Positions 14,998-44,549 of a stretch of DNA of 50,000 nucleotides are shown in pieces. This DNA is from Polypterus senegalus (lineage: Eukaryota). Made by a program: the position numbers and the translations under genes. How positions within the stretch are numbered: the first letter of the stretch is position 1; each line of letters begins with the position of its first letter. A model generated the notes under the pieces. It worked only from the letters and a program-made list of their open reading frames with translations. It searched no databases and was not told the origin of the DNA. The stretch spans positions 1 through 50,000 of the forward strand of contig NW_024382994.1 of assembly GCF_016835505.1 (NCBI RefSeq), in the 5' to 3' direction.

Positions 14998-15177
14998 GTG
15001 GATAAAGATGGAGACGAGGAGACGGAGGAGGTGACCCGGCGCCCTGGAGACTGCTGGATGCTACGTGGACCCCTGGAATATGTGCCTCCGGTAGAAGTGG
15101 AGGTGGTGACGAGGCGAAAAGCCATCCCGTTGGATGAAAATGAGGGCATCTACGTGCGTGACATGAAGAGTGGCAAG
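14998..15177 (+). CDS. mvp: mvp coding exon 8 ([60 protein letters not shown])
   Basis: Acceptor is tatgcaccag|. Donor is AAG|GTGAGA. The sequence matches human ...[44 protein letters not shown]. Confidence 0.9.
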
Positions 15178-15387
15178 GTGAGAGACTATAGCGGGTCAGC
15201 AACTGAGTGCCTTCCTCCACAAGCTACAGCAGTCCAGCGTTCTTGTCTTTTTAGATGTCTCATTATGGAGAAAGCAGGATTGACCAGCTTCTTGTGTTGA
15301 ATTGTTCACATGTTCTTGTGTCACCCTGTGAATTTTTCATCCTTTTGCTAGCAGTAAGCAAGACCCTCCTCTCTCTTCCCCCTCCAG

Positions 15388-15626
15388 GTTCGAGCCGTCA
15401 TTGGGGAGACCTACATGCTCACCCATGATGAGGAGCTGTGGGAAAAGGTGCTGCCCAACAACGTGGAGAAGCTTCTGGCTGAAGCCAAGGACCCTTTAGC
15501 TGACCGCTCAGAGAGGCAAAGTACCTCCTCGACTTTGCCCATCAGAGATCGGACCAGAGTGGTGTCTTACCGGGTGCCTCACAATGCTGCCGTCCAAGTT
15601 TATGATTACAGGGACAAGAAAGCTAG
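15388..15626 (+). CDS. mvp: mvp coding exon 9 ([79 protein letters not shown] + ag)
   Basis: Acceptor is ccctccag|. Donor is AG|GTGAGC. The sequence matches human [23 protein letters not shown]...[24 protein letters not shown]. Confidence 0.9.
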
Positions 15627-15720
15627 GTGAGCAGGGTGGGGTTAGAAGGTGGTGGACACCACCAGGGATGTCTTTAAATTATTGGGATTGTAATAATGAG
15701 GATGTCTGTCTGTGGCACAG

Positions 15721-15918
15721 GGTGGTCTTTGGACCAGAAATGGTGATGCTGGGTCCTGACGAGCAGTTCACAGTCCTCAGCCTGTCTGGAGATCGGCCTA
15801 AGAGATCCAATGTGATCAAAACCATCTGCCTGCTGCTGGGCCCTGACTTCTGCACCGATATCATCAACATCGAGACCGCTGACCACGCCAGGCTGCAGTT
15901 GCAGCTTTCCTACAACTG
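15721..15918 (+). CDS. mvp: mvp coding exon 10 ([66 protein letters not shown] + tg)
   Basis: Acceptor is tgtggcacag|. Donor is TG|GTAACA. The sequence matches human [66 protein letters not shown]. Confidence 0.9.
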
Positions 15919-16003
15919 GTAACATCTGCCTGCTTGCATGTGTAGACGCCTCTTCAACTCTCAAATATTTTTCAAACTTTTACCAATTTCTTCTGTGTCT
16001 TAG

Positions 16004-16148
16004 GCACTTTCATATTAAGGACAAGTCTGACACTGTGGAGGCGTCGTGCATCTTCAGCGTCCCAGATTTTGTGGGCGATGCCTGCAAAGCCATTGCCTCT
16101 CGCATACGTGGAGCCGTGGCCTCCGTCCAGTTTGATGACTTCCACAAG
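16004..16148 (+). CDS. mvp: mvp coding exon 11 ([49 protein letters not shown])
   Basis: Acceptor is tgtgtcttag|. Donor is AAG|GTAAGG. The sequence matches human [48 protein letters not shown]. Confidence 0.9.
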
Positions 16149-16235
16149 GTAAGGCAATGGGTTTTTCTTAGCCAGGGTTGGCGCCCCATCAGACTTGTGG
16201 CCCTGGTCAACTCAACCCTCCTGCCTCTCTCTCAG

Positions 16236-16447
16236 AATTCCAATCGGATCATCTGCTCGGCCGTGTTTGGCTTCGACGACACCATGAAGGTGCGCAACAA
16301 TTTCACATTCCCCCAGAATAACCTGGTGATCACCAGCGTGGACATCCAGTCGGTGGAGCCCGTCGACCAGCGCACCCGGGATGCCCTGCAGAAGAGCGTG
16401 CAGCTGGCCATTGAGATCACTACCAACTCACAGGAGGCAGCAGCCAG
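16236..16447 (+). CDS. mvp: mvp coding exon 12 ([70 protein letters not shown] + ag)
   Basis: Acceptor is ctctctctcag|. Donor is AG|GTCTGT. The sequence matches human NSARIIRTAVFGF...[48 protein letters not shown]. Confidence 0.9.
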
Positions 16448-16859
16448 GTCTGTCCTCCATTGAGGTGGGGGCTTTGGATTCATGTGTGAATTGGCATCCA
16501 GCAGGGCATACTCGAAGCTTTAAGCTGGCAGTCCTCTGTGTCTTAGTTGTGAGGCTTTATTCAGCATTTCATCTGCTCAGTTTGCTTTTCCTAGACTGAG
16601 TGTTTGCTTTGTGAGAGCGGGTGGGACACTTTTGGAGAACAGAGCCTGAAATTGAGGAAGTAGAGGAGAGCAGGTTCTCTCACATCCTTGTATTATTTGT
16701 TTTGACAGCCCTCTGAATGAATCATAATAGGGGGCGGGGCATGTAGATGGGCACAATGGCTCTCACCGATATCTCCTCCTGCTAGCTGACATCTATCAGC
16801 CTCACACTGAAGGCCCCAATTGATGTTTTACTCAATGGTGCTCCATTCACTTTCAACAG

Positions 16860-16976
16860 GCATGAGGCTGAACGCCTGGAGCAGGAGGCTCGTGGCAAGC
16901 TGGAAAGACAGAGGATCACAGATCAGGCTCAGGCCGAGAAGGCAAGGAAGGAGCTGCTGGAGCTGGAGGCACTGAG
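16860..16976 (+). CDS. mvp: mvp coding exon 13 ([39 protein letters not shown] + ag)
   Basis: Acceptor is ctttcaacag|. Donor is AG|GTGAGG. The sequence matches human [39 protein letters not shown]. Confidence 0.9.
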
Positions 16977-17203
16977 GTGAGGGGAGACAGGTGGCATGAA
17001 GTGGCATTTGGGAAGCTGTGTGGGTGGGAAAGTCTGAAATAGCAGTGCCTGACATGTTGATGAACCTCCTGGTGGACGGTCAGAAGGACAGACACTTGTA
17101 CTGCAGACATGATGAGAGAACACTTGTCGTCTGTGCCATCTGCAGAATATATTTGCCTGAGCTGATAGAACATTCAAATCTCTTTTCTACTTGATTTCCA
17201 CAG

Positions 17204-17330
17204 TGCTGCGGTGGAGAGCACTGGTGCGGCAAAGGCCGAGGCTCAGTCCAAGATGGAGGCAGCAAAGATTGAGGGTGACTGTGCAGTGATGCAAGCCAAT
17301 CTGAAGTCACAAGCCCTGAAGATCGAAGCG
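17204..17330 (+). CDS. mvp: mvp coding exon 14 ([43 protein letters not shown])
   Basis: Acceptor is ttgatttccacag|. Donor is GCG|GTGAGT. The sequence matches human [41 protein letters not shown]. Confidence 0.9.
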
Positions 17331-17394
17331 GTGAGTACTGACAGCCTCTGGCCACTTGGGCAAACTGGAGTACCTACCTACCTGTCTGTCTGTA

Positions 17395-17660
17395 CATTAT
17401 GAAGCCTTATCTATCTGGTGTTTTTCTATCTAATCCTGCCAACTATACCAAATTTTTTCTATTTGTCTAGTCCTGCCAACTACGCTAAAATGTCTCTGTC
17501 ATTTTAGCATAGTTAGCAGGATTAGATAGACAGACAGACAGACATTTTAGCGTAGTTGGCAGGATTAAACAGACAGACAAGACAGATAGAAAGAATTTGG
17601 TATAGTTGGCAGGATTAGATAGACAAACAGACAACTATACCAAATTCTTTCGTTAAGTTT
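17395..17660. repeat. inverted-repeat (hairpin) element in mvp intron 14: atctaatcctgccaactataccaaatt ... aatttggtatagttggcaggattagat with (agacag)n centre
   Basis: Two to three copies of the terminus motif ttggtatagttggcaggattagatagacagacag appear in opposing orientations. This is the same terminus as the 42190 array. Confidence 0.55.
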
Positions 17661-18862
17661 CTGGTTAGAATAGCTTTTGCAAAGACAATTAACAAATCTC
17701 ATAGCCAAACATTCAAAAAAGTTGTTTTATTTAATATAGAGAAATGAAATTCAGTCACAGGCAGTTATACGTTGTGTCGATGCATATGTAACAATTCCCA
17801 TGAAAATACAAATCTGTGTAAATTGTACATCCGCATCCCCATACGCGAGTGGCAGAACCGCAAAGAGGCTCATCAAGGCTACTCCTTCACAAGAAGTCAG
17901 CCCGCGTATTTACCGACTCACAGGAAAAGGCACGTGGGGGCAATCTGGCGCGTCTCTCACTCAACGCTCCGATATCTCACTGTTTTCTCTCTCCGTCATT
18001 GTGTTGTGTGTGTGCGTTTAATTGGAATCGCATAACCATTGATTACGGCGGAATTTGTTACATCAGTTTGGATGGATTCTTGTTTAGTCATCGATCCTGA
18101 ACACGTATGCAAAATTTGAAGAAATTCGCTTTGCCAAAAGTGGATTTAAAATCAGTTGCCAGATTTGACCCCGACAAGCAAACAGACAGAGGAGTCACAT
18201 TCGATAAAATCGTTTAATAAAACACTCGACGTTCAATCCACACTCACCTGACACTACAGACGGCAGAAAAGCGCTCATTTCAGACGTCTGTGTGGACAGG
18301 GCCTAACTTTCTTATCCAGTTCAGGCTTGCTGACTTTAACTGAGGAAATGCCGAAGACCCTTTCTGTTTTAGGCAAATGGAGATTAAGGGGTGACGTGAC
18401 TGAAGTGTTTGAAATTATGAAGGGCATTATTATGGTGGGCCAACAAGAACAAGGGAGTTAAGGGTAAATTTTGTACAGATGTTAAGTTTTTCTTCAGGTG
18501 AAGAACCACAGGCACATGGAATGAATGCCCAAGTAGTGTGGTGGAGAGCAGGACTTTAGGGACCTTCACATCTCAACTTGATGCTGTTGTGGAGAATCTC
18601 AGTAGGATCAGTAGTTAGTTGGGCTCATCGGCCTGCTCTCCTCACAGTTGCTCTCATGGTCACAACATTGACAAGCTTTTCTATGCCATTGACAAATATG
18701 GCTTCTCAACGCCCCCCTTGCCTGAGGATTCTTCAGCATTTGCTCCCAAGTGCCTTCACTCTGTGCATCTCTCTCCTCGTGGCACACTGTGGATCTTCCT
18801 GATGTTCCAGTGCCCTAATTCCTTCCACCATCACCCCCCCAACCCGCCCTTTCTTGTTTCAG

Positions 18863-19051
18863 GAGGCAGAGCTGGCCCGGCTGGTGAAGGCTCGCGAGCA
18901 GGAGCTGGAGTACGTCCGTGAGCAGGACAAACTGGAGGTGGACAAGGCAGCCAAGTTGGCCGAACTGGAGATCAAGAAATTCCAGGAGATGGTAAAGAGC
19001 ATCGGGGCAGACACCATCAAGGACATTGCCACGGCTGGCCCAGAGCTTCAG
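18863..19051 (+). CDS. mvp: mvp coding exon 15 ([63 protein letters not shown])
   Basis: Acceptor is ttcttgtttcag|. Donor is CAG|GTGCGT. The sequence matches human ...[23 protein letters not shown]. Confidence 0.9.
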
Positions 19052-19141
19052 GTGCGTCTTTTGGCCGTCGGTGCCTTTGTCTGTGTACCCCTGGCACAAA
19101 CTTACGTTTTGGTGTTTTTTATTTTTTTGTTGCCTCTTCAG

Positions 19142-19276
19142 GTGAAGATGCTTCAAGGCCTTGGCCTGCAGTCGACACTCATCACCGACGGCTCATCGCC
19201 CATCAACCTCTTCACCACTGCACATGGCCTGCTTGGCTCCCTTAAGCCCATCGAGGGAAAAAGTAGCAGTGGGTGA
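19142..19276 (+). CDS. mvp: mvp terminal coding exon 16 ([44 protein letters not shown], stop TGA 19274-19276)
   Basis: Acceptor is ttgcctcttcag|. The sequence matches human [38 protein letters not shown] lies 143 nt downstream. Confidence 0.9.
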
Positions 19277-19418
19277 CACGGAGAGAGACTCGGTGGGGAG
19301 CACCGGAGAACCGAGTCATGCCAAAGAGAGAGAAGATGCCCTGACTGTGTGCTGCTTTTCCCGCTTCTGGCCGAGGCTGCCTTTCTGAACCTTTGCACTG
19401 TGTATTCTGCTCTGCTGC

Positions 19419-19424
19419 AATAAA
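19419..19424 (+). promoter_or_regulatory. mvp: polyadenylation signal AATAAA of mvp
   Basis: It is the only AATAAA shortly after the stop, in the context ctgctgcAATAAAgataacc. Confidence 0.6.
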
Positions 19425-21539
19425 GATAACCTTCTGTACGGAGTGAGATGCTTTCTTAATCCCTTAATGGCCTGCTGGCCTCATTCCCAGACTTGATTGA
19501 GCAGCAAGGCGCTAGTTTAGTGATTCATCACAAAGATATTTCAGGAAGTTGATTTCACGCTATGGGCAGTGCCAGTGCCAGTGCTCATGTTGGGGAATTA
19601 ACACAAGTGCATCTCGGTGAGGGACACAAGTGAGAGGACATCCACCTTCTTCAGGTCAGCTTCTAACCTACATGGACCAATCAGAGTGTAGACAGAGTGA
19701 GCATGCATTGTCCCACCTTCCACCTCCAGAGGATGCTGCAGAAAAGGAAGGCAAACCAAAGCTCAGCCTACATGGCGATTCCAATCCAATTCCCCTTTAT
19801 GCCAGATGGCATGAATGGCAGCAACAAAGTTCCACTACTTACGTCCGTCTTGGGTGAAGTTTCTGTGTGGCGTCCAAAGCTGTGGTTCAGTTCTCTCCCC
19901 AAAGTTCACCTCCAGGTGTTCTTAGGCCTGCCTGTCTTACGATTGCCTCCTTAAGGGTCCCGAGTAGAACTCTTCTTGTGATGAAGTCTTGCTCCAGTCC
20001 ATCTCCACTTGATGATGATGATGATGGTACCCATGCTGTGTTGCTTGCAGCTGGTGAGCAGCTCTTGATTTGAGAAGGTTCATAGCCAGAAAATATGAAG
20101 GACTTTGCTCAGGCTACTGGTGTGGAATGTCGACAGTTTGGAAATGACTCCTTCTGTCATCCGGCAGCATTCTGATCCTACAAGAGTGTGAAGACAATGC
20201 AGCTCTGGTAAAGCCTTCACTTGGTGTTGATACCACACTTTCGGGCTTTGCTCAGTCTGCTGTTGATGTCAATACGTGCCCTTCCATCATGTCTGACAAT
20301 GCTGCCCATGTAAATATGTCCTCTCCATCCACCTTGATCAGCGAGGGTCTTGAGATGTTAAGTGCCGTGATTTTCAAATTCCTTGATGCTGACATTCCAG
20401 CCCACTTACACTGTATAGATGTTAAGGTGAGGGTCTCTTTCTGTCCGTGCTGGCGTCTGTGAGAGCAAAGTGAGCTCATCTGCTTGCTTTAGGTCCTCCA
20501 GAGTAGAAGACGAGGTCCATCGGTTTCCTCTCGCGTGATCTTTTGTTGTGCATCACATCACCCAGTTGATGACCACATTAAAATGCGACACTGACATTAC
20601 AATTGGCCTACGTAAGAAGTTTTTTCAGTTATTCTCTTAACCAATTCAGTGAAAGGAAAAAGCAAAGTTTTACACGCCAAGGTGTCCTCCTGCTGCACAG
20701 CAAATCCTCCCCACCACAGCTTCTCTACTTCTTTAAGGGCTGGCTTGGTTCTCCCCATGTCTGTGTATTCACTTTATGACTAAGGGTCCTAAAGGGACAT
20801 GGGGGCTGAATGCCGTCTTTGTAGCATCGGGTGCAAGGCAGTCATCAGTCCGTGACACGGCCCAGTCCCTCGTACAGGGACAGTTAACAGGTCCTCGTCA
20901 CGGTGCCACCAGAGGGAGACACTGCGCTGCTGGGAGTTCATAACCAGGTGAGTTACTGCACCATGACTGATGGGGAAAGCTACAGTTCAAATCTACTATG
21001 ATGGTGATTCACCCGGAAGTGAAAAAACAAAGCTAATAATCCAGAAAGTACTGGAAAAAGAAATCATTTTTACTAAGCTACATATGACAATATGGCAAGG
21101 TCCTAGCTGTTGAGACACAAAGAAAATGAAATTACAACTCTGTGGCAATCAAAAAGCTGTTATCTTTATCCAAGGTATGTGCAGTACCTATAAAAAGTAT
21201 TTACTACTTTGGAAGTTTTCACATTCCATCGACCTTAATAAAATAACTGTGTGTGTGTGTGTGTGTCTGGCTGGCTGCTATGTCTCTGTCAGTCCAACAG
21301 ATTTTCTCTGCCTCCACTCTTGAACTCCAAGTTGGTGAGGTTAACTTCACTGAACACCCCAAGTAGGTGGCACTGACTCCAATAGGGTCTAGCTGTAGAC
21401 CCCCAGAACTCCACCCTATTACACTAGGATTACAATTAGCATTGTGGGAGGGTTATGGGATTCAAATAATGTCAAGTACTGTCAAGTAAATTAGCGAATT
21501 CCAGAGATACCAGACACTCAATGTTTTTAGTAAAAAAAT

Positions 21540-21930
21540 GCATTTGTCATTCCAACAGATGGCACATCACAAACATTAACGCTGCTTTTATGGATCCCAT
21601 CCCAAATGGCACATCACAGAGACATATTGCATTATGTTTGTCATTCCAACAGAGGGTGCATCACAAACATTTGTGGTAAAGCGTTTTATTACTGCAAATG
21701 TTTGTGATGCACCCTCTGTTGGAATGTCAAGTACAATGCACTTCATCACTACATGCATTACAAAACACATTGCAATAGATGGCACACTGCAACCGTTAAC
21801 ACTGTGGTCTTCATTGATTACTTGGATTTCAGCCCATCTTAGACAGGTAGCACATAAACAGCTAATACGGCACATCACTCTACTACTACATATTGACATT
21901 TTCTGCTTTTCAGTGTCAAAAAAGCCAAAT
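21540..21930. mobile_element. cluster of hairpin MITE copies (family motif (c)cattccaacagatggcacatcacaaacatt); includes a perfect 32-bp-stem palindrome 21643-21726
   Basis: cattccaacagagggtgcatcacaaacatttg ... caaatgtttgtgatgcaccctctgttggaatg are exact reverse complements separated by a 20 nt loop. Related copies lie at 21553, 21775 and 46930-47470. Confidence 0.65.
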
Positions 21931-22106
21931 TAAGCCCATTGTTATTCAATGTTGTGTACTTTTTAAAGACACTGTTCACCCCCAAACTTTTAAACTCGAT
22001 GGGATTCACGCATTCAATCCCAGTTGGTGAGGCTGAGCCATTCCTGTTAAACTGTGACAACCCACATACCAAGAAATACTTTTCATAAAATTTTTAATTC
22101 TTCCCC

Positions 22107-22108
<2 letters not shown>

Positions 22109-22145
<37 letters not shown>

Positions 22146-22160
22146 TAATAATAATAATAA
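22109..22160. repeat. (AAT)n microsatellite
   Basis: Visible as aataataataat... with about 17 units. Confidence 0.9.
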
Positions 22161-22262
22161 ACACAAATACCCACACAAACAGAAGGGCAGAAATAAAACA
22201 AATGTCTCCTCTACAAGTGCACTAATTTCACTTTCATCCCTGATTCTTCAGCTTCTTCTAAC

Positions 22263-22526
22263 CATCCATCCATTATCCAACCTGATATATCCTAACTACA
22301 GGGTCATGGGGGTCTGCTGGAGCCAATCCCAGCCAACACAGGGTGCAAGGCAGGAAACAAACCCCTGTGCACCTTCACCAGCCCACCACAGGGCACACAC
22401 ACCCACACATCAAGCACACATTAGGGACAATTTAGGATCTCCAATACTGTACACCTAACCTGCATGTCTTTGGACTGTGGGAGGAAACCCACGCAGACAC
22501 GGGGAGAACATGCAAACTCCACGCAG
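22263..22526 (+). mobile_element. SINE copy, 3'-truncated
   Basis: It shares head and core with the 332 and 26928 copies. Confidence 0.7.
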
Positions 22527-22764
22527 CCCCTTCTTCTAACCACCTAATGCTAACATTTGGCTCTCTAGTATTTCCTAAAGCTGATTTTTATTTTATACTT
22601 GCCTGGGTCTGCATGGACATGTTTATAGAAAGGGTTAAAGAAAGAAGCAAAGATTTCTGTGTTTTATTTTTTGTTTTTTTTTCAATGGCGCCCCTTTTGT
22701 TTTTGCTAGCTGTCCCATCCATCATCCACACTGCCTCTCTATCGATGTCTCTGCTCTCGTGAGT

Positions 22765-22830
22765 CGACAATTTGTTGTTTTTGGGGTCCGACTGGATTCC
22801 AGAATTGCAGTAACTCCTTGCTGGGTTGTA
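22765..22830 (-). repeat. short interspersed repeat shared with 49555-49625 (+) (tggttacaac(c/t)ca(g/a)c(a/g)aggagttac(t/a)g(c/a)aattctggaatccagtcggaccc)
   Basis: There is about 85 percent identity over ~65 bp between the two loci. Both yield ORF fragments of the form MVTTQ.GVT.ILESSRT. Confidence 0.45.
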
Positions 22831-23249
22831 ACCATGAATGCGAAAAGCCGACAAAGCAGGAGTTTAATAACATCCGTCGGATTGTCCTTTGCATTGCGCT
22901 GCACTTCCAGTCTTGCTCAAGCCTCACCCGACTTCCCCCCTACAAAACCCCGGATGCTGATTTGTACGTTACAGTAGATGGGGTAGCAGGCAGCGTTACC
23001 TTGCTAAATTATGACACGTTCTTGTCATTTCGTCTGTCGGTCTGGTGAACTTGAAAGCTGCCTGCTGCAACTCTTCTCGGACTCTTCTGCTGTTTCAACA
23101 GACCTGCTGCTCTCATTTCATCGTCTCGATTCCAGGATGGCAAAATTCCCAAAATGAACAATTCGCCTATTGAGGAGTTGAGCCGTTTCCAAAAAGGCTG
23201 AGCTCAGTTGCGGCACAGCTGTGTCATGCTTATGGAAACTTTTACTAAA

Positions 23250-23700
23250 AAAGGCTGGCGGGCGAACTTTGCAACTTCTAGTTTTGCCGCACCACACCTC
23301 TTGGTGGCAGCAATATAGTGAAGCGCGTCACGTAGTTTGTCCCTCACGGCGCCCACTACTAGTCTGCCGCGCCCGCCAAAGGGTTCCCATGACAACGCTT
23401 CTGGCAACGCGGGGCTTACTTCCGGCAGCAAGGCGGTTAGAAGGAAAACGCAAAGACAAATCTGTTACTAACGCTAAGGTAAATATAAATCGATAGAATA
23501 AAATGAATAGAAAGCAAAATAAATAAACTGATCACCGAAAAAATTGTTAGCGACCATGAGGACGAGGGAAAACCAAGGTTGTGCCCGTGGAGTGGGATGT
23601 GCCCGATGCTGTAGCCGTGTGCGGGTGTCAGTTTTAAAGGGTTATGGTGGGCGTAAAGAGTCGAATAGAACGGTCACCGAGGGAAAAAGATTTAAAAATG
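23250..23700. promoter_or_regulatory. CpG island / candidate promoter with candidate + strand donors (ctaag|gtaaat ~23478; caaag|gtaagtg ~23977); possible first non-coding exon of the cysteine-rich gene
   Basis: A CpG-dense stretch (gcgcgtcacg, gccgcgcccgcc, acttccggcagc ETS-like) sits in an otherwise AT-rich intergenic region. It lies 5.4 kb upstream of the exon-29104 acceptor. Confidence 0.3.
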
Positions 23701-26057
23701 GACTTCACGCTAAAAAAAAAAAACAAAACATCTGTAGTTTATTACGGCAACGACGTACTTCGTGAGATCCTCCTTTGTTTAAAGTTATTAAGGCTGCACC
23801 GCGTACTTGCATGCGTACGTGTCCGTAACTTCATGTGACGCTTTAACGCTGTTACGGTTAATTGGAAATGATTATGAGAACAGATGGAGGACTATAGTGG
23901 GGAATTTTCAACTGTTTGTTAGCCAACTGTATTATCGTGGTATTTCCCTCTACTTGCCTTTTACCTGTTTCCTCAAAGGTAAGTGTTCTCGTCAAGTTCG
24001 TTATCGGGTTGGTCTACTGTTGCACTTTAAGATGAACACACACACAGACCCTAACCACAACAGTGCTCCATGAATGACACACACGCGCTGATTAACCCCT
24101 AGCACTTTAAACCACACAAGTGCTATAGGAATAACAGCCTGTCATTCAGCACTTCAAGAGACTTACTTATTCTCGGCACGAACAACAATACGATGTTTTA
24201 GTGATATCTCAGACCTAAATATTACTTTTGGTCTACTAGAATACATTTAAACATACAAAGACTCAGCACTCTTGACTATAAGCCATTTATCAGCCAAGAA
24301 TACCTTCTTTATCGTATCTGTCCCTTCTGTTGAGTATAGCGCTCTTCACTCTCAGCCATATAAACCTCGCAGCACAGAAATAATGGCAAAATTCCGGCTG
24401 TCACCAGGTGCTCAAAGAAATCTAACTTATTACTTCAATCACTCTAGACATTAAGACAAAGCACTGAAAGTTAAAAGCAGCAGGGTATTTATTACAAGAA
24501 TAATAATAATACCACAAGAACAAAGAATACTAGAAAATAGGTACTGATAGGAAAGTCTGAATATACGTATATAGTCTTTAGAAAAAGCTTACGAAAAAGT
24601 TACAGATGACAAGGATGAATGTCCCAGGGAGGCGTTTGATTTAGCAATCAATGTTCATGATGCCTTTCTGACGACCAGGGCCGTCTGCGTCCGTTCCTCT
24701 TCTTCTTTCTTCTTCTCCCTTTGCTTCTCTTTCTTCTCCCTTTGCTTCTCTCTTCTTCTTTCCAAACCAAGGCCTATTTATTATGAAATGTCAAGCCTTG
24801 GTTTCACAACACATGCACCTGATTGGCTGGCTGTCCAAATGATTGATGAATTAATTCACTGTCCGTTTTCCCACACAACAAAACCTTTGATGTACTCGGA
24901 GGCATCAGTAGTTCTTCCTGTCCTAGGCCATAAAGCAAATTGTTGTTCCAGATGTCCATCCATCAATAGCCTGAGGTATCAGCTCAGCATCCTTTCCCAG
25001 GCTATAAAACCAAATTAGCACAAAGCTATGAACAAGTGTTATAAAAGTAAGGTGTAAGGGAAGAAAACCTGCTTTAATTTGTTAATTTCATCTGTTGTCT
25101 TGTCTTGAACAAAATATAATGGAAACCAAAATGTACAGATTTTATACACCATAACACCAACTATTTCCATAAAATTATAAATGAGTAATTGTGCAGTCCT
25201 GCTTATTTCAAAGGAGGGGAAATGAACAGTTTTCATCAAGATACAAGTTGTAATGAATCCTGAATGTCAGAGAAAGAGAAGAAATGTCTGGAAATAGCTG
25301 AACTTCAGTCTGGTAACCCTTTACTTATTTTTGTTTTCTTTGTTTCTTTTCCAAAAAGCACACAGGATACCAGAGATGAGCGGCTACATCCGAAGACTGA
25401 ATGGGTGAGTTCAGACTCCGAGCTGTCCAGCATCTATCTATGTGTCCATTATTCTAGGCTAACCCAACACCTCACCACCGCCATCTCTGCCTTTTGTCTT
25501 GTTTTTCTATATAGCGCCTTTTATGATGCAACTCATAAGGTACCTGACATGCAGTGAAATTTACATTGGGGGCCATAAGTGTGTGTGTGTGTGGAACTCT
25601 GATTGACGCAGCATGGGGCAGCAGTGTGATGTCATTTCATCTTTTGAAAATTTTTTTTGTTCTTTTTCAGGTGCAGATCTTTGCATGAGATCTTTATCTC
25701 TCTCTCTCTCACAATTTGAAATGAATTCACTAAAAGATCTGTTCCAATGAATAAAAACGCTACAACAAAATAATTCCCAGTAATCCTGAACAGTAGCACA
25801 TTGAGTAATATACAGGGGGTCCAGATGTAATTATGCTACTTTTAATGCAATGCACCTCGGAAACATTACCCGTTATCGAGAAAAGGCGAACACATCGTAC
25901 TCGTTGTTCGACTGACAACAATCTCCCCGCCATTTTGGAATGCAAGGCAGGTGCTGCCATCTATCGGCAACAAAAATATTTTTTTGTGAATCCTCTATGT
26001 AATAAACTTAAGTTATAGCGTAATGAAAATTGCATAATTAGATCTGAACCACCCTAT

Positions 26058-26640
26058 ACATAGTAAACCAGTAACTGGGCACTGCTATCATGATAACGTA
26101 CAGTGAATCCACTTGACTTGACCATTCCTAGTTTTCCTCCACTTTCTCTGTACATTTAGCATTCGTTTGCTCAGCTTGCTTCTTCCTGAGCAGCTCTTCT
26201 TTTCGCCACCCTAGCGGCCCGCTTCTTCTCTTGTTTCGTTAAAACTAATTAAGTCAGTGTTTGTGTTGCAATTGCTTAGTACATTTTCTTCAATTTATTC
26301 ACTTAAGCTGGCACTTAAATCATTCTTGAGGCAGATTGAAGACTTAAGATATGAAGAGTTGGGGGAAGTGATGGCGATGGTGAAGGCGGTAGGGATGAGA
26401 ACGGCGCCCATACACATGTGCCACACGGGCGCCCTGCTGCGCGAGGCAGAAAGTTGATTCTACAATAAAATAAAATAATAATAAAAAGAGGAATAACCTT
26501 GGATGTCAATCATCACCCTGAAAGTGGATAGCAGATGTGTACCAAATTTCAGGTTAATAGTTCAAACGGTTTACCAGGTGATTTAAAATCCTGGACAGAC
26601 AAACGGACAGCCACGGTAGCGTATTCTATATAAAGACTAA
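26058..26640 (+). repeat. unclassified ~580 bp repeat, copy A (inverted relative to copy B at 35050-35585)
   Basis: Blocks such as cacttaagctggcacttaaatcattcttgaggcagattgaagacttaag and ggtgatttaaaatcctggacagacaaacggacagccacggtagcg are reverse complements of copy B over the whole length. Confidence 0.7.
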
Positions 26641-26927
26641 CAATTTACAAAACCTTGAATTCCCATTCAACCTGCGCCCTTAAATTAATAGACACAAAGG
26701 TATAAGCAGGGCAGATATTCACTCCCTCGCACGCTACCCGTCTCTCCTTCTTCCCAATGCCTTTGTTTAGGTTGGGCCCAGTTTGGACTTATTCACATTT
26801 TAATGCTCGAGGAGTTGGCTGTTTTTTTTGTTTCGGCCTTGAACTCCAAGAGATTTATTTTCCTCCAATATTTGTGCAGCCTGGAGTTTTTGTTTCCCTT
26901 TCCTCCCTGGCTATTTGAACATAGTAT

Positions 26928-27256
26928 CCATCCATCCATTTCCTAACCCACTGAATCCGAACACAGGGTCACGGGGGTCTGCTGGAGCCAATCCCAGCCA
27001 ACACAGTGCACAAGGCAGGAACCGATCCTGGGCTGGGTGCCAACCCACCGCAAGACACACACAAACACACCAAGCACACACCAAGCACACACTAGGGCCA
27101 ATTTAGAATCGCCAATCCACCTAACCTGCATGTCTTTGGATTGTGGAATGAAACCGGAGTGCCCGGAGGAAACCCACGCAGACACGGGGAGAACATGCAA
27201 ACCCGGGTCTCCTAACTGCGAGGCAGCAGCGCTACCACTGTGCCACCGTGCCGCCC
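26928..27256 (+). mobile_element. full-length SINE copy with perfect 12-bp target-site duplication tgaacatagtat (26916-26927 and 27257-27268)
   Basis: The TSD flanks the head ccatccatccatt and the tail ccgtgccgccc. The copy is intact and little diverged. Confidence 0.85.
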
Positions 27257-27536
27257 TGAACATAGTATGATGTGTCAAATTGGACATTAATGTTTGCGAC
27301 TATTGCTGTTTAGATATCTTTGTCTTTCTAGACCACGGGTGTTGAACTCTGGTCCTGGAGGGCCGCAGTGGCTGCAGGTTTTCATTCTAACCCTTTTACT
27401 AATCAGTTTTTGCTGCTAATTAACTTCTTTCCCCTTCATTTTCATTGCCCTGTTTTTAAGGATCGAGACCACTGAATTGATTCCTTTCTTCAATAAATGA
27501 CAGCCAAACAGAAATGAGACGTGAGATGAGCCAACA

Positions 27537-27557
27537 AAGATAGATAGATAGATAGAT
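27537..27557. repeat. (GATA)5 microsatellite
   Basis: Visible as gatagatagatagatagata. Confidence 0.85.
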
Positions 27558-29103
27558 ACTTTATTAATCCCAAGGGGAAATTCACATAATCCAGCAGCAG
27601 TATACTGATACAAAGAAACAATATTAAATTAAATAGTAATAAAAATGAAAAAAATAAAAATAAAAAAGCACACAATAACTTTGAGTAACCAAGTGACCAG
27701 TTAAACTGGGATTTCAAACTCCATCCAACTTTCACTCCAACCAATCCCTTAATGAGAAGCCAATTCTTTCTGTTAATTAAACCCGTTATTTAATTCCACG
27801 GCTTGTTGCCGCTCTCATTCTGTCACAGCAGACATTTCCAAAAACTGTTGATTTTTCTGTTTATTTACAAGATGTTTTGGTGACCTGAGAGATCAACCTG
27901 ACCGAGACCTTCACCTTTCTTTATTTTCAGGTTAGCTGGTCGTGTGGCGGCTCGTTTTGTGTCTCATTATGGTTTGGGTTCTCATTAAGGAAAAAGAGAC
28001 AACTAAGGGGTCGGAGTCAAGTTATTTAAAACTAAGGCAAAAGAACTTAATTAGCAGCAAAAATGGCTCACTAATGAAGAAGATGGTTAGAGTGAACACC
28101 TGCAGCCACTGCGGCCCACCAGGACTGGAGTTGGACACACGTGTTGTAGATTTGTCAGTTGTAACACACTTTCAGCTGCAGTTTTTTTAAAATAATGGTC
28201 GTTGTTTGTGCTATTAGGCTTCCAGTTCTAGTTTTATAAAAATGTGATGTGGGGGTGAGAGTCCCCTCATCTTAGACAGTTAAAAGGACGGTCCGCCTGC
28301 AGTCACTGATGGGGAGGCGTCTTTTTAATTTCAACCCTTGTATTTGGAAATAAAGCCTTAAAACAGAACAGAACACAGTCAAACAAATAAAAACAACACA
28401 GCAGGTACAACCGTCTGCCTAAAAACAATCCATGAAACTCTGCATTAAAGCTGACGGGGCTTTTTGAGTCGAGAGCCTACTCTAAAATGGACGTTTGAAT
28501 GGAATAAAACCGCAAGTGAAATGAACAGATTGACTACGGGCCTGGGGCATTTGTTTTAGAATTATTAAAGTTCTAAACAGATCCTTATAAAGAGACTTTG
28601 ATTTATAGATAATGTAGAATATCACTGCAACACTGATTGGGACCTTCTAGTTGAGCAGAGTGAACCTCCGTGTGTGTCGTGTGGCACTTTGAGCTTCGTC
28701 ATTTGTATGAAAATGTGCAATTTAAATAAATGGTGTTGGTGTTTAAGATATTACTACCAGTTTTTCATAGCACACTTTTTTCCCCATCTGGTATCACTCC
28801 AAATATGACCGTTGCGAGTGAATTTAAATCCAAGGCTGTCTAGGAGGTAAACCAGTTTGAAAAATATAACATTATATTTGTATAAGTGTTGAACGTGATT
28901 TGTTTCTATGACAGAGAACGGTTTCCCTGTGGGTCCAAGCAATTCATTTCAGTCTCTCCTTTAATATCCCTCCCCAATTTTTTTAAATGTATTTATTTTA
29001 GTGCCCCCATATTTTCCGCCCCCTCCTTATTTGTGGCTTTTTGCAGTTTCAGATAATCCACTTCACCCCGGCGTGACTGGGACTCGGCTCTGCTGGCATT
29101 GTG

Positions 29104-29334
29104 ATGGCAGTGAGTATCATGACGGTCTCCCGATGTTGCTGCTCTTCCTCAGCTGTCCGTGTTAAGTCAGCCTCTCCCTCCCTTTCTCCTCAGTCTGTCA
29201 CGCCCTCGCTGTCAGCCCTGCAGATTGTCTCCGTTTCAGGCCTTTCACTACCCCTTCCCGCCATTGTGTTGATTGCCGTGGCTGCCTATCTGCTCCTTGT
29301 TTTGCTGATCCTTTGGCTGCGCCAGTGCATCCAG
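29104..29334 (+). CDS. coding exon of a small cysteine-rich single-pass membrane protein (MAVSIMTVSRCCCSSSAVRVKSASPSLSPQSVTPSLSALQIVSVSGLSLPLPAIVLIAVAAYLLLVLLILWLRQCIQ)
   Basis: The ATG has good Kozak context (gtgATGg). A strong acceptor context (ccccctccttatttgtggctttttgcag|tttcag) lies 50-60 nt upstream, suggesting an upstream 5' UTR exon. Donor is CAG|GTAAAT at 29335. The exon encodes a Ser/Pro-rich stretch followed by a ~24-residue hydrophobic helix. The phase-0 junction is compatible with the next exon. Confidence 0.5.
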
Positions 29335-32300
29335 GTAAATTCAAGTTCACATTTCTTGTCATATGTACTGAATGCAATGAAATTTTTACTTGCATGCCTC
29401 CTCAGAGCAGTGACAGTAATATAAGAGCAACAAAAGACAAACACTAACCTGTTTGTAGGGCCCTTCTTGTCCCGTGTTTCGAGTCCAGTGGACGTCTCCC
29501 TTGTGTGTGCTATGAACACATCACCACTCTCCAGCACCAGGATTAGTGAACAGAACTACCTCACCTCAGAACATCTGTCATTTATCATTAACAGACAAAG
29601 AGAATAAGGAAATTACAGAAATTAGAAAGTGGATGGATCAATGAAATTATGATAATTGTCTGCTTTATCCCCATCTATGACCATGTGGGCTGTGCTCCAA
29701 GCTCCCATCCAGCTTGTGGGAGCTCTTGGACCCGACACCATCGGTAACGTCACCAATGAGCTGGACAGTGTGGCACAACAAAGCAAGGGGATGGTGCAAA
29801 GAGTGCAAAGTGCTTTTAGTTTAAAAATCAACAAAACCGTGTTCAAATAAGTAGTGCAGTGCTTCAAAAATCTTCAGATAAATAATCCAATTAAAACAAG
29901 TGAACAGTGGAGGTTGAAAACACAAAAGAAAAAAAAATCCTTTTAAAACAATGGCTGGAAGCAGTCTTTTTAAAACAAAGCCCGGTGCCTACTTTTACTG
30001 GTGACTCCCCTGTTTCTGCCATCCTGGCTAGTCACCCAACACGCAGCTGACCACCTTCGTTTCTCTGGTCTGGTGGCCTTTCCGACTCCTCGCTCCAGTT
30101 CTGTTCACCCAGACCGAGACTTGGGCTCCCCAGCAACCAGGACACTCACGCTGGGGCTTCCACTTCCCAAGTCCCCGACTCCCACTGCCTTTTGCTGCGG
30201 CGAGCCTACCTTCTCCCGGTCACTCCCGCTCTAAACAAACACTCAGCAGGAGCGAGCACTACCGTCGGCCCTCGGGTGCCAGCCAAACACCCCACTCGGG
30301 CTCGACTCTCCTGTACCAGCTTTCTCCTTCCTGCTTCCTTCTCCATTAACCTCCTTTCACGTTCTTTTTTTTTTTTCTTTCTCTCTTTTACCCCCGGCCC
30401 TCATCCGCCTCGCGCTTCTATTATATCATGTGGCAATTCGCAGCTCCTGGCATCAATTACAGATGCGGACGACTCCTCACCTGTGCACTTAAGCGAGGAC
30501 CGTCCGCATTACGAATTCACCCAGGAACCTGCTGCAGCCACACTACCACGACCCCTCTCTAAGCCACGAGTGTGGCGACTATTTATTTAAAAAGTGGCCT
30601 TTTTGACTTGAGCTGTGGACCCGCTACACCACACCATCCAGAATAGCAGAGACAGCACAGTTAGCACTGCTTCTAGAAAACAGGATCAGATTCTGATTGT
30701 AGGCCTAGCAAACCTTAACTGGATTATACTGTGTGCACATTAGGTGTATGGACACCTCTAAGTTGGCCTAGCATGAACGAATGAGAGTGTCTCCATAAAT
30801 GTGCCCTCCAACGGACTGGTGGCACATTTAAGGGTTGGTGCCTGTCTTTTAGGAAAAGCTGTTGGGATAGGCAGTGCTCCACGGCAAAATACAGAAATGG
30901 AGCAAAAGAAAGTAAAAATAAATTCATACAACCATCCCTGGATGAGAACACGCAAAACACTTACTCACAGTAGGCCAATTTAGCAGTTCATTCAGAGCGT
31001 GACAAGAAGTAAAGCTAATAGCAATGGTATCAAAAGCACGTTTAATAGAAATCTTATATATAAACATCTACATATGAAAGTGTGTGTCTGTCTATCTGCC
31101 CGGCCCGGAAGTGCCAGGCTACAGCAGTGAAGCTGAAAGAGCCAGCAAGGCAGCCCCAAGACAAACTCACTTACCTGCTGATACACAACGGGGCGAGCAC
31201 GTCCAAAAAAACAGAACCGCCAACTCTGCATTTCAATTTCTGACGATTTCAATAGTTTCTAGGAGCCTGGGCTTACATAAGTAGTATTATATAAAGGTTG
31301 AGGTGATTATTAATACAATACAATACAATTAATTTGTTGTATAGCCCAAAATCACACACAGAGTGCCGCAATGGGCTTTAACAGGCCCTTGCCTTTTGAC
31401 AGCCCCTCAGCCTTGACTCTCTAAGAAGACAAGGAAAAACTCCAAAAAAAAAACCAAAACAATGGAAGAAACCTTGGGAAAGGCAGTTCCCCCTATCCAG
31501 GTAGGTTGGGTGGGCAGTGGGTGTCAAAAAAAAAAAAAATGGGGTCAATACAACACAATACACAGAACAGGATGCAACAATTCATAATAACCATTATCAC
31601 TGTCAAGAATGTCATGAGTGTAATGACCAGTAATTTGATCATGAAAGCCTTTATTTTATATACGTCACATAACGTCACATAACCTGCTGGATGTCTTTTT
31701 GTATGAAATATCACCCCATGGTGGTTGGTGTGGACAAAGGTTCGAGACAACAGCAGGCAGACACCGATTCACACAAGCAGAATTCTTTTTATTCTTTCTT
31801 TTCTTGGTGAGCAGAGAAATCTGTGCAGACCCTGTCAGCTTGTCATTGACAATTTCTAATCACAGACCCTTACAGTAGGCTTTTATATCCTTTTTTTTTT
31901 CTTCAGTACACACTTATCTTATAGTTGCAGCTTTACTGGTGGAGTAACTTCTTGTTTGTTAATTAAGACAGGGTGCATCTTCCTAAGGGCTGACACACCC
32001 TTCATCCACCTCTTCCTACTTAGCTTGCGGCTATTTTCTACGCCCAGGCTCTAACCTTTTAACTTTCCTACATCACATACCCTAACAATCTTAATGCATT
32101 CATAGGGTTAACACAAAGAACTCTTATACTTGCAGATATATACATTTTCTTAGCATCAGCTGGTTTGCATAACATATTTTCCAACCACCAGAAAGCGCCC
32201 AGACAGTAATCGTCAAGGCGTTTCAGACTTGTTTATCTAAGTACCAAATGTTACAATGCACTTCGGTGTGGTCTCAAGATCTTCGTCCTCTCTTTTGGAC

Positions 32301-32902
32301 TAGGTCAAAAGGCCCTCAGCCCAAGATTCTTTGTTCAACTATTATTTAACATATTGATTCAAATTTTTATTATTCCACATTGGCAAAACAGAGAGAGAGT
32401 ACACATGATTACAAATTCATTTATTTTTTTGCAGTCGGACCCCATGCAGGTTTTTGTGATGTGCTCAGGGTCACACAGCAAATCACAAGTGGATGTTAAC
32501 CTGACCACCTTGTGGCACAAAGGCAAAGCGCGGACATGTGTCTCCTGCTGAATATCAATGTTAACTATCAATGGAGTTAGGTTTTTATCCACATTCCAAA
32601 GACAGGCTTATATGGTTTATTGGTGACTGAATGGCGTCCTGTTCTGTGTTGATTCCTGCCCAGCACCAGAAGCTGCTGCAACAGGCTCCTGTTTTGTGCA
32701 AGCCTGAACCGGATTAAGTGCAGTCAGGTGATGGATGGATGGATGATCAATATTGTACTCTTTCTCTGCATACGTCAAGCTTGTCGTCAGTAATCTCATC
32801 ATCAATATTTGTCTCCATGGAAATGACCCCTTTTGCTGTCTTCTTGTGTTTATTGCTATTGACAAGTAGGCGATGCTTAGCCCTCTCTGCTTGTCTTGCC
32901 AG

Positions 32903-33049
32903 TCTCGAGGCCTGTGTCCCGCCAGCTGCGACTGTGAGAAGGCCTGCCGCTGTGGACTGTGCGACTGCTGCCTGGCCTGTGCTGAGCTCTGTGACTGTAA
33001 GATGCCTTCCCTGAGGTCCTGCCTCAATGGCCTTTGCCCCAGATCTCCG
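32903..33049 (+). CDS. cysteine-rich exon (SRGLCPASCDCEKACRCGLCDCCLACAELCDCKMPSLRSCLNGLCPRSP)
   Basis: Acceptor is ctctgcttgtcttgccag|. Donor is the strong CCG|GTGAGT. The exon has 13 Cys in 49 codons. The antisense strand is low-complexity. Confidence 0.6.
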
Positions 33050-33147
33050 GTGAGTTCCTCAGTCTTAGGAGACGCCTGGCGTTGATCCTCTGCAACCTGC
33101 TGCTCACCTCGTGTCTCTCTCTCTCTCTCTCTCCTCTCGTCTTTCAG

Positions 33148-33249
33148 GACTGCACCGACTGTTGCCCAGTTTGTGACTGTGCCTGCACCTTTCAGCCCCC
33201 TGACTGTGAGAGCTGCAACTGTCTGTGCTTTGAAATCAAGATGAGATGA
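33148..33249 (+). CDS. terminal cysteine-rich exon (DCTDCCPVCDCACTFQPPDCESCNCLCFEIKMR, stop TGA 33247-33249)
   Basis: Acceptor is (ct)n ctcgtctttcag|. Phase 0 continues from the previous exon. The stop is followed by AATAAA at 33319. Confidence 0.6.
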   Translation, partial: DCTDCCPVCDCACTFQPPDCESCNCLCFEIKMR

Positions 33250-33318
33250 GCAGCGACCCACACACCCTGTAAATACTGATTTCCTTTTTATAAGAAAATG
33301 AATTACTTTTTTATAAAA

Positions 33319-33324
33319 AATAAA
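33319..33324 (+). promoter_or_regulatory. AATAAA polyadenylation signal for the cysteine-rich gene
   Basis: The signal lies 70 nt after the stop codon in an AT-rich context. Confidence 0.5.
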
Positions 33325-33439
33325 TTTGATTTCCATTTACCTTGTGTAAGCACAGTTTCACTTGTAAGGAGGTATGATCAGGCCAGCTGTGAAGCCATGC
33401 CAGTCACAACCCAAAATCTAATATGTAAACCTGAAAATG

Positions 33440-33625
33440 TGTGTGTATGCATGTGTGAGTGTGTGTGTGTGTGTGTGTCCGGTAAGCAAATCCACATCAC
33501 TGAACCTTTCTTCACCAGATTTTACAGGTTCCTCATTTATGCTGATAAACGCCATAGGCTGTGTCTTTGGACAGCGAGAGGAAACCCAGACCGACATGGG
33601 GAGAACATGTAAACTCCACACATGA
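33440..33625 (+). mobile_element. old diverged 3' half of the same SINE ((GT)n then ...ctgtgtctttggacagcgagaggaaacccagaccgacatggggagaacatgtaaactccacac)
   Basis: The 3' block matches the SINE ctgcatgtctttggactgtgggaggaaacccacgcagacacggggagaacatgcaaactccacgcag at about 80 percent identity. Confidence 0.5.
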
Positions 33626-37432: not shown

Positions 37433-37528
37433 TTAGTAGGCATGGTTGGCCACAAAGAGGGACTGACCAGCAGCAGCTCCCTGGTCTCCTGAAGAGACGT
37501 ATTTTCCTACGGCAGCCTGGCTGTTATT
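37433..37528 (-). CDS. aldoa: aldolase terminal coding exon 8 ([31 protein letters not shown], stop TAA at 37435-37433)
   Basis: Acceptor is tttcttttccag|. The C-terminus SLFVANHAY* is diagnostic of class I aldolase. Confidence 0.88.
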
Positions 37529-37613
37529 CTGGAAAAGAAAAAGCGAGAGGAGCAGAGGTGAGAAGGGGGCGCAAGCCAAATGGGCATGGTGGGGTGGTTT
37601 GGCGGAGTCTTAC

Positions 37614-37813
37614 CATGGCCCTCTTCATGTACTCTTCCTGTGCCGCCTTAGCGTTCTCCTTCTTGCCACTCCAGGCTTTGAGTGCGGAGGCCTGCAGGGC
37701 GCGACCATAAGAGAAGGTCAAGGCCCAGGGCTTGTGCAGGGGGCACTGGTTGATGGCACTCAAGTTGATGGAGGCTTCCTCCTCACTCTGACCTCCAGAC
37801 AGGAAAGTGACTC
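37614..37813 (-). CDS. aldoa: aldolase coding exon 7 ([67 protein letters not shown])
   Basis: Acceptor is caatag|. Donor is ATG|GTAAGA. The sequence matches aldolase [53 protein letters not shown]. Confidence 0.9.
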
Positions 37814-37910
37814 CTATTGATAAAACAACCAACAAGAGAAGTGGGACAGTTGGAAAGGACCAAGGGGTCAAAACTGGCAATAAAATGCCAACCACCATGA
37901 GACATCTAAC

Positions 37911-38085
37911 CTGGCACTGCAGGTGGAACAGTGCGGCGCAGAGCAGTCACCGTTGCCATGGCGATCTCCTGAGGGGCATACTTGTGGGTGCAGGCGTGGC
38001 CAGCTGTCACCATGTTGGGTTTGAGCAGGGTGCCCTCCAGGTAGACATGGTGGTCACTCAGAGCTTTGTACACTGCAGCCAGAAC
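37911..38085 (-). CDS. aldoa: aldolase coding exon 6 ([58 protein letters not shown] + g)
   Basis: Acceptor is atgtag|. Donor is G|GTTAGA, which is non-consensus at +3. The phase agrees with the next exon. Confidence 0.85.
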
Positions 38086-38130
38086 CTACATAGGCAGGAC
38101 AATAGTGGGTAAACATGGCAGATGAGGCTA

Positions 38131-38250
<120 letters not shown>

Positions 38251-38333
38251 CTAAGGAAGAAAAAAAAATATATATGACAGGGTATCAACTAGCCATCCCC
38301 TCCGACATAGTGGTGTACATCTGGTGGCGCTCA

Positions 38334-38552
<219 letters not shown>

Positions 38553-38615
38553 TTATAAAAATGGTAATACTAGATAGATTGGCAAAATTTGGGACAGTCA
38601 GGTGGGCATTCTCAC

Positions 38616-38670
38616 CTTGGGTGGTGGTTTCACCATTGGTGCCAGCCAGGGGGACAACACCTTTGTCAAC
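38616..38670 (-). CDS. aldoa: aldolase coding exon 3 (VDKGVVPLAGTNGETTTQ + g)
   Basis: Acceptor is cttgcag|. Donor is G|GTGAGA. The sequence is identical to the aldolase VDKGVVPLAGTNGETTTQG. Confidence 0.9.
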
Positions 38671-38929
38671 CTGCAAGACAGAGGAAGTGAAGAAAATAAG
38701 GGCCACTGGCGACAAAGGTAATTGGTACCAGTGACTGGCAACTCCCCTGAAAGTAAAAGGGGGAGGTCCTGTGCCAACCCATCGGCAATGCCTTTCCAGC
38801 CAGGGTGCAGAAACTGTAAAAGCACTTGATGAAATAAAAGTGACCTAGAACTGCCAACTTAAGCGAGATGGCTTCTTCACCAGGCTCTGTACAAAGTTAG
38901 GAGTGCCCTGCATAAGCTACTGGACCTAC

Positions 38930-39141
38930 CTTGATGCCCACAACAATGCCCTTGTCCTTGATGACCTTAGGGAAGAGCACCCCAGCGTCATTCTTCTGGT
39001 AGAGGGTCTCGTGGAAAAAGATGACCCCACCGATGCAGCCCTTCATGCGGTCGTCGGCAGAGAAGAGGATCTGACGGTAGAAACGGCGGTTCTCCTCGGT
39101 GTTCTCCACGTTGATCTGCTGCATGCGCTTGGCCATACTGC
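38930..39141 (-). CDS. aldoa: aldolase coding exon 2 ([71 protein letters not shown])
   Basis: Acceptor is tgtag|. Donor is AAG|GTAGGT. The sequence matches aldolase ...[12 protein letters not shown]...CIGGVI(L/F)FHETLYQK...VVGIK. Confidence 0.9.
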
Positions 39142-39228
39142 CTACAAGTCAAAGAGGGCGAGATATGAGTGGGTTAAAGCTCTGCCAACACCTTCCTCCC
39201 AGTGGCGACATTCCAGGACGATCCTTAC

Positions 39229-39340
39229 CGGTGGACTCATCGGCTGCCAGGATCCCCTTTCCAGGGGCGACGATCTTCTGGGCAATTTCTGCGAGCTCCT
39301 TCTTCTGCTCTGGGGACAGCGCTGGGTATTCGTGTGGCAT
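39229..39340 (-). CDS. aldoa: fructose-bisphosphate aldolase (class I), coding exon 1 ([37 protein letters not shown] + g); ATG at 39340-39338
   Basis: Translation matches the aldolase N-terminus (human [43 protein letters not shown]). Donor is G|GTAAGG. An acceptor (ttgctttgcag) lies 8 nt upstream of the ATG, so further 5' UTR exon(s) lie upstream. Confidence 0.9.
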
Positions 39341-44477: not shown

Positions 44478-44549
44478 TGCGTTGGCCGGGAATCGAACCC
44501 GGGTCAACTGCTTGGAAGGCAGCTATGCTAACCACTATACCACCAACGC
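44478..44549 (-). tRNA. tRNA-Gly (anticodon TCC)
   Basis: The minus-strand sequence GCGTTGGTGGTATAGTGGTtAGCATAGCTGCCTTCCAAGCAGTTGACCCGGGTTCGATTCCCGGCCAACGCA matches the canonical vertebrate tRNA-Gly-TCC, with A box TAGTGG, B box GGTTCGATTCC and anticodon loop CTTCCAA. Confidence 0.9.

Follow-up and report, generated by a model that had tools for sequence, protein, structure and literature searches.

A Polypterus senegalus gene between mvp and aldolase A as the very probable orthologue of an unnamed animal-wide gene for a small, cysteine-tailed membrane protein

The window analysed here is a stretch of 50,000 nucleotides from Polypterus senegalus (positions 1 to 50,000 of contig NW_024382994.1, assembly GCF_016835505.1, forward strand), and the gene under study lies within it at 29104-33252 on the + strand, between mvp and aldolase A. 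It is almost certainly the ray-finned orthologue of an unnamed, animal-wide gene known as LOC112694756 in human, Gm57854 in mouse and si:ch211-198p11.6 in zebrafish and other fishes, and, its gene model corrected, it is one more member of a family that pipelines predict but that has never been characterised. The product is small, spans the membrane once and has a tail dense in cysteine (Cys). For this tail a mechanism built on a signal anchor, metal-thiolate blocks and acylated juxtamembrane Cys residues may be proposed, and orthology and mechanism taken together seem to us, on balance, the probable explanation of the locus.

A search of 5.8e9 proteins gave 38 vertebrate homologues with expectation values (E) from 4e-43 to 5e-6, and a vertebrate-only profile run against 1.84e9 representatives, with names and taxa taken from cluster look-ups and two further searches, gave 94 matches at E<=1e-3; homologues in such numbers and at such E values put the open reading frame (ORF) far beyond chance. 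Orthologues run from sturgeon (63% identity, E 4e-43) and coelacanth (54%, E 8e-42, aligned end to end) to macaque (49%, E 2e-30), with a homologue in the hemichordate Ptychodera at 39% (E 2e-21), and identity of the window protein to the tetrapod and non-teleost fish members is 49-63%. Further ray-finned members are found in Amia, paddlefish and many teleosts titled 'uncharacterized protein si:ch211-198p11.6', and a reedfish fragment is 95% identical across the C-terminal third. The one polypterid model in the databases, that of Erpetoichthys calabaricus (UniProt A0A8C4SL67), is a fragment of 88 residues, lacks the membrane helix and starts differently (MPLFNNINRSPFSRPVS...), its first exon probably being mis-predicted. 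Mammalian members come from placentals, marsupials and echidna and include the mouse entry 'Predicted gene 57854' (Gm57854) and the rat entry LOC103691235, and the other vertebrates represented are lizard, turtles, alligator, frog, coelacanth and lamprey. Primate, rodent, tortoise, lizard and lamprey orthologues all carry the RefSeq name 'LOC112694756 homolog', and because the coelacanth member is titled SI:CH211-198P11.6 the fish and tetrapod gene names are tied together. Invertebrate members, which the vertebrate-only profile found at E 3e-13 to 6e-4, include besides Ptychodera the annelid Capitella, the bivalve Pinctada, Priapulus, crayfish, spiders, the nematode Trichinella and the ctenophore Mnemiopsis.

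Every member has the same layout, in which a short N-terminus, often rich in Ser, Thr and Pro, leads via a (L)P(L)PA motif to a single hydrophobic helix, in which a Tyr is invariant, then to a juxtamembrane R-x-C-L and two Cys-rich blocks ending in P(D/E)CxSxNC(L/I)CFE(I/L). The alignments, and the per-column counts made over 60 sequences from ctenophore to mammals, place the window protein within this architecture (residue numbers follow the 159-residue reading given below). C151 and C153 are invariant, C146, N150, F154 and E155 nearly so, and C82, C88, C107, C122, C137, C146 and N150 are each present in at least 90% of the sequences; about 14 positions retain Cys in 47 or more of the 60. Conservation in the first Cys-rich exon falls on C100, A104, E105, C107, C109, P112 and C122, and the second carries the best conserved motif of the family, CDCACxxQPP(D/E)CxSxNC(L/I)CFE(I/L). 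Non-Cys residues retained from ctenophore to mammals are A104, E105, P112, P144, N150, F154 and E155, and R73 is nearly invariant. The window protein departs from most members at two positions, carrying S85 and F141 in place of Cys. AlphaFold2, run with 28 and then 60 sequences, returned residues 51-78 as a helix with a predicted local distance difference test score (pLDDT) >90 and the tail with pLDDT <50. The original prediction that a real, spliced gene here encodes a small protein crossing the membrane once is upheld.

Turning to the gene model, the three + strand exons, GT/AG signals and phase 0 junctions reported earlier are all present in the letters. Joined, 29104-29334, 32903-33049 and 33148-33249 give an ORF of 480 nucleotides or 159 residues, closed by a TGA stop at 33250-33252, and since each exon length is divisible by 3 every junction is in phase 0. 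The splice signals (a slash marks the junction) are CAG/gtaaat, cttgccag/TCT, CCG/gtgagt and ctttcag/GAC, the second exon opening as cag/TCTCGA at 32903 and the third as ttcag/GACTGC at 33148. Because a TGA stands in frame at 29074-29076, translation can begin no earlier than the ATG at 29104, and the 5' untranslated region may run further upstream, with a candidate acceptor at 29046/29047. The part of the first exon from 29194 to 29334 encodes a short Ser/Pro-rich N-terminal stretch, an LPLPA motif, the transmembrane helix (about 29242-29319) and a juxtamembrane R-Q-C-I-Q. An intron of 3568 nucleotides follows (29335-32902, with GT at 29335 and AG ending at 32902), then the first Cys-rich exon (32903-33049, 49 residues, SRGLC...CLACAELCDCKMPSLRSCLNGLCPRSP), an intron of 98 nucleotides (33050-33147, gtgagt...tctttcag) and the second Cys-rich exon (33148-33252, 34 residues and the stop codon). 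The predicted AATAAA polyadenylation signal is indeed there at 33319-33324, 67 nucleotides past the stop codon, and a recount of the tail from SRGLC to KMR again gives 23 Cys in 82 residues. A (CT)n run occupies 33110-33140 within the last intron and a (TG)n microsatellite 33438-33478 just beyond the poly(A) signal. On the opposite strand an ORF of 239 residues (32617-33336, -) covers both Cys-rich exons and the intron between them, and most likely arises merely because the sequence is poor in stops and rich in Cys codons, not because a gene lies there.

The predicted product of about 159 residues stands as a reading of the ORF but probably not as the true product, as exon 1 probably contains an intron. 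The basis for this is the match of the window start to the two-codon start exons of relatives: sturgeon reads ATGGCG/GTGAGT, Amia ATGGCA/GTAAGT and the window, at 29104-29115, ATGGCA/GTGAGT, all of the form ATGGCN/GTRAGT. Short start exons are also seen in Toxotes (MSSHQETVQ), the Tamandua anteater (MD) and Ptychodera (MADSG). The window mini-exon would be 29104-29109, ATG GCA for Met-Ala, followed by a probable 84-nucleotide intron at 29110-29193 running from the donor GTGAGT to the acceptor cctccctttctcctcag/TCT at 29193/29194, the best in-frame acceptor, with 15/15 pyrimidines. The 28 residues that 29110-29193 would otherwise encode (VSIMTVSRCCCSSSAVRVKSASPSLSPQ) have no counterpart in any homologue and contain 3 Cys, where nearly all family members have none, and the spliced product of 131 residues (MASVTPSLSALQIV...) aligns with the coelacanth protein from Met1 to the end. 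Removal of this segment would leave four coding exons. The intron is in frame and holds no stop, and its retention would therefore also yield a protein, of 159 residues; both starts are thus possible, with the comparison to relatives pointing to 131 residues as the probable one.

The intron after RQC(I/L)x falls at the same codon in sturgeon, Amia, Toxotes, Tamandua and Ptychodera, and the one between the two Cys blocks is likewise at the same codon in those relatives, where mapped; the first Cys-rich exon of sturgeon starts with SRG and ends with PRST as it does in the window. Intron positions are thereby common to hemichordate through mammals. Contigs of about 1 kb assembled from mouse RNA-seq runs (ERR6226392, ERR12549874) hold a complete uninterrupted ORF in which the helix exon and both Cys-rich exons are joined. 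They can be read as spliced mRNA of the orthologue because the gene of the anteater, the only mammal locus retrieved, holds introns and spans about 5 kb. Isoforms that skip whole exons are annotated, namely forms of 87 residues in mammals without the first Cys block and a mouse form of 91 residues without the helix, and it is the phase 0 junctions throughout that allow them.

The position proposed earlier, between mvp and aldoa, is confirmed, mvp lying at 3536-19237 (+) and aldolase A at 37436-39340 (-), and sturgeon has the same convergent pair of gene and aldolase. The Tamandua anteater has the gene (+), aldolase (+) 3 kb downstream and then a Metallophos-domain gene (+), which we take to be PPP4C. 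This order matches that of human 16p11.2, where gene lists run TLCD3B, LOC112694756, ALDOA, PPP4C (PMC11354020, PMC11781945). The linkage to aldolase is absent within 10 kb in Amia, which has CLN3 upstream, and in Toxotes. As regards orientation, aldolase A is convergent in the window and in sturgeon and tandem on the same strand in the anteater (L004 18440-21180 (+)), and from this difference between ray-finned fishes and mammals it follows that one of the two genes was inverted between them.

It had been held that nothing at the equivalent position of human 16p11.2 resembles this gene, which fails given that LOC112694756 is listed between TLCD3B and ALDOA and that orthologues carry its name. 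With it goes the idea of a lineage-specific gene. A gene confined to one lineage, without a human 16p11.2 counterpart, or for that matter a spurious gene model, would account for the lack of any Pfam or PDB match, for the absence of the exact window sequences of 159 and 154 residues among the roughly 15 billion proteins searched, and for the truncated, helix-less state of the nearest polypterid model, that of Erpetoichthys. What it does not accommodate are the orthologues across vertebrates with relatives in invertebrates, the introns they have in common, the aldolase synteny and the human gene lists, and we regard it as extremely improbable; it is already refuted by the homologues and the synteny.

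The family has its closest likeness in layout, introns and aldolase A neighbour among its own members, LOC112694756, Gm57854, LOC103691235 and si:ch211-198p11.6, and the original view that PLAC8, I-mfa and metallothionein all fail to fit the protein is sustained and extends to keratin-associated proteins, Pfam scans giving only noise and the PDB no match. For the window protein itself the Pfam scan gave only a sub-threshold DoxX_2 match on the hydrophobic helix, with no metallothionein match at E<=10; for 33 diverse members it gave noise (DoxX_2, CD20, Mid2 and others), all below the curated cut-offs, with no match at E<=1 to metallothionein, PLAC8/cornifelin (PF04749), I-mfa/MDFI or CYSTM. 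Sequence searches of the PDB with the window protein and the family profile found no match. Keratin-associated protein was set aside for want of a Pfam match and for the confident membrane helix, and a 4Fe-4S ferredoxin-type CxxCxxCxxxC (C97, C100, C103, C107) was rejected with C97 in 37 and C103 in 27 of the 60 sequences.

Automatic pipelines have labelled some members keratin-associated protein, sperm mitochondrial-associated cysteine-rich protein (SMCP), G-gamma 4 or MEDEA, among other names. What the keratin-associated, SMCP, Mst84D, G-gamma-4 and MEDEA proteins have in common with the family is high Cys content alone. Neither the N-terminal membrane helix nor the NC(L/I)CFE(I/L) end occurs in them, and the Pfam scan of the 33 members gave no match to any of their families; the labels are compositional mis-assignments. 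PLAC8/cornifelin, I-mfa (MDFI) and CYSTM proteins are alike in being small, Cys-rich and associated with membranes or metal tolerance. CYSTM proteins are tail-anchored and have their cysteines inside the helix, whereas the helix of the window protein is N-terminal and almost free of Cys. The resemblance to metallothioneins extends to a Cys density of about 28%, to motifs of the CxC, CC and CxxC type, the C-terminus having a CxCxC...CxxCxCxC run, to the lack of an aromatic-rich core and to low confidence of the predicted structure without metal. Unlike metallothioneins, however, the window protein has a membrane helix and is acidic, not Lys/Ser-rich, between its cysteines, and Pro, Asn, Phe and Glu are conserved at certain of its positions; any binding of metal by it is a prediction.

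With the helix at residues 51-78 of 159 and 81 residues, including the Cys domain, following it, the protein is not tail-anchored as had been suggested, which would call for a single helix within about 30 residues of the C-terminus. The 15 residues after the helix hold on average 2.25 Lys plus Arg against 0.28 before it, with the bias in this direction in 83 of 89 members, and from this positive-inside bias the N-terminus would be outside and the Cys tail cytosolic. The protein is thus predicted to be a signal-anchored type III protein with an outside or lumenal N-terminus; sequons for N-glycosylation occur in the N-terminal stretch of 12 members. The opposite, type II arrangement, with a cytosolic N-terminus and a lumenal or extracellular Cys domain acting as a disulfide-knotted ligand or receptor piece, has some appeal in that small, very Cys-rich domains are usually extracellular and disulfide-bonded. 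It would also suit the N-I-S sequon in the tail of many teleosts, although relatives have D-I-S there, and the myristoylation-like MGxxx(S/T) start of a few invertebrate members. Yet it demands the reverse of the charge bias seen in those 83 of 89 members, the N-terminal stretch, Ser/Thr/Pro-rich and often with sequons, looks like a short ectodomain, and AlphaFold2 gives no knot-like fold, and we consider a type II protein quite improbable.

Given a type III arrangement, the single helix would serve as a signal anchor, the Ser/Pro-rich N-terminus would be outside or lumenal and the tail of roughly 85 residues would lie in the cytosol. The cytosol being reducing, the roughly 14 conserved cysteines would not be structural disulfides but would remain as free thiols, bind metal or be acylated. 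CxC, CC and CxxC motifs abound in the tail, with Asp and Glu scattered among them, and its two conserved blocks, C-x2-C...AExCDCxxPS...C(L)DxxCP and CDCAC...P(D/E)CxSxNC(L/I)CFE(I/L), may fold round zinc or copper thiolate clusters in the way of a membrane-tethered metallothionein or a CXC-type zinc module, with C75 and C82, nearest the membrane, S-acylated. Such a protein could act at a membrane as a buffer or sensor of metal or redox state, or as a small docking adaptor. Metal-thiolate binding is favoured because the Cys spacing and several non-Cys residues are kept across animals, and because the best conserved block is at the far C-terminus and is acidic; plain acylation sites would need neither the spacing nor the conserved non-Cys residues. 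Small domains whose folding depends on metal often receive low AlphaFold2 confidence, as the tail does even with 60 sequences. As a whole this mechanism is a tentative proposal, which we would put somewhat short of an even chance.

The same gene and topology could instead go with a tail that is mainly a multiply S-palmitoylated 'cysteine string', lying flat on the inner leaflet and sorting the protein into ordered membrane domains. The Cys cluster starts 2 residues past the helix (R-Q-C, then G-L-C), C75, C82, C86, C88, C92 and C94 fall within about 20 residues of it on what the charge bias suggests is the cytosolic side, as many as about 8 Cys are packed into 20 residues, and a non-globular, lipid-embedded tail would fit the low AlphaFold2 confidence equally. 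The palmitoylated tail of the coronavirus spike has been described as denser in Cys than any other membrane-proximal region in the proteins of human viruses, and this endodomain, like cysteine-string protein, resembles the window protein in having a Cys cluster of comparable density right at the cytosolic side of a single helix (PMC8104966). There is no sequence relationship, however, and the spike cluster is about 20 residues long against a window tail of about 85 with its best conserved block at the far end. It is this distal block, about 60-85 residues from the membrane, that tells against palmitoylation as the main role, since it holds invariant non-Cys residues and acidic residues which acylation alone would leave unexplained and which an anionic leaflet would be expected to repel, and a tail of this kind seems to us rather unlikely.

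Several points weigh against the metal-thiolate account, the topology and the gene model. No compact AlphaFold2 fold emerges, at pLDDT <50, and a merely disordered tail would fit this as well; among Pfam zinc and metallothionein models none matches; and the CxxCxxCxxxC string is not conserved, C103 being present in 27 of 60. Four members start with the MGxxx(S/T)-like pattern, which would imply a cytosolic N-terminus. Metal binding, acylation and topology are all predictions from sequence, as is the probable start that gives 131 and not 159 residues.

The family is a blank in that it runs from ctenophore to human without a Pfam entry, a solved structure or a confident predicted fold. Literature searches returned nothing on si:ch211-198p11.6, Gm57854, LOC103691235 or the motif strings, and LOC112694756 was found solely in copy-number variation gene lists and expression tables. 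The human member falls within the 16p11.2 interval and figures there as a gene-list item, while deletion and duplication of 16p11.2 are linked to autism, obesity and schizophrenia (PMC11354020, PMC11781945). It is conceivable, if somewhat doubtful, that these are the ancient, unstudied membrane-tethered, metallothionein-like metal-thiolate proteins of animals from ctenophore to human, and that the human one is an overlooked coding gene of 16p11.2 BP4-BP5; were that true, analyses of this recurrent deletion/duplication interval would usually have left it out. The zebrafish (si:ch211-198p11.6) and mouse (Gm57854) orthologues make function directly testable.

Annotation of the mammalian gene has oddities of its own. 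A Reactome 'neutrophil degranulation' set lists the human LOC112694756 identifier, which is also found at expression levels like those of ribosomal proteins, and a lemur isoform of 87 residues is labelled 'Aldolase, fructose-bisphosphate A' by Ensembl, which suggests that mammalian gene models and identifiers are entangled with ALDOA, perhaps via shared or read-through transcripts. The slot between DOC2A and FAM57B is presumably that of C16orf92. AC093512.2 (ENSG00000285043), which one paper sets in that slot and another detects in plasma proteomics, could not be equated with the human gene and was not used.

Elsewhere in the window, the roughly 10 kb between mvp and the gene (19300-29046) held no identified feature, tblastx against sturgeon giving low-complexity matches only, and in sturgeon, too, the 10 kb upstream of the orthologue is without a called gene. 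No PPP4C match was found in the window with a single query sequence. An mvp intron segment (8594-10545) matches part of the large intron of the sturgeon orthologue (L001 13829-14719) by tblastx in multiple frames, probably through a shared transposable element. The sole Rfam match in the window is a tRNA at 44478-44549 (-), scoring 63.6 bits, which may represent either a tRNA gene or a short interspersed nuclear element derived from a tRNA.

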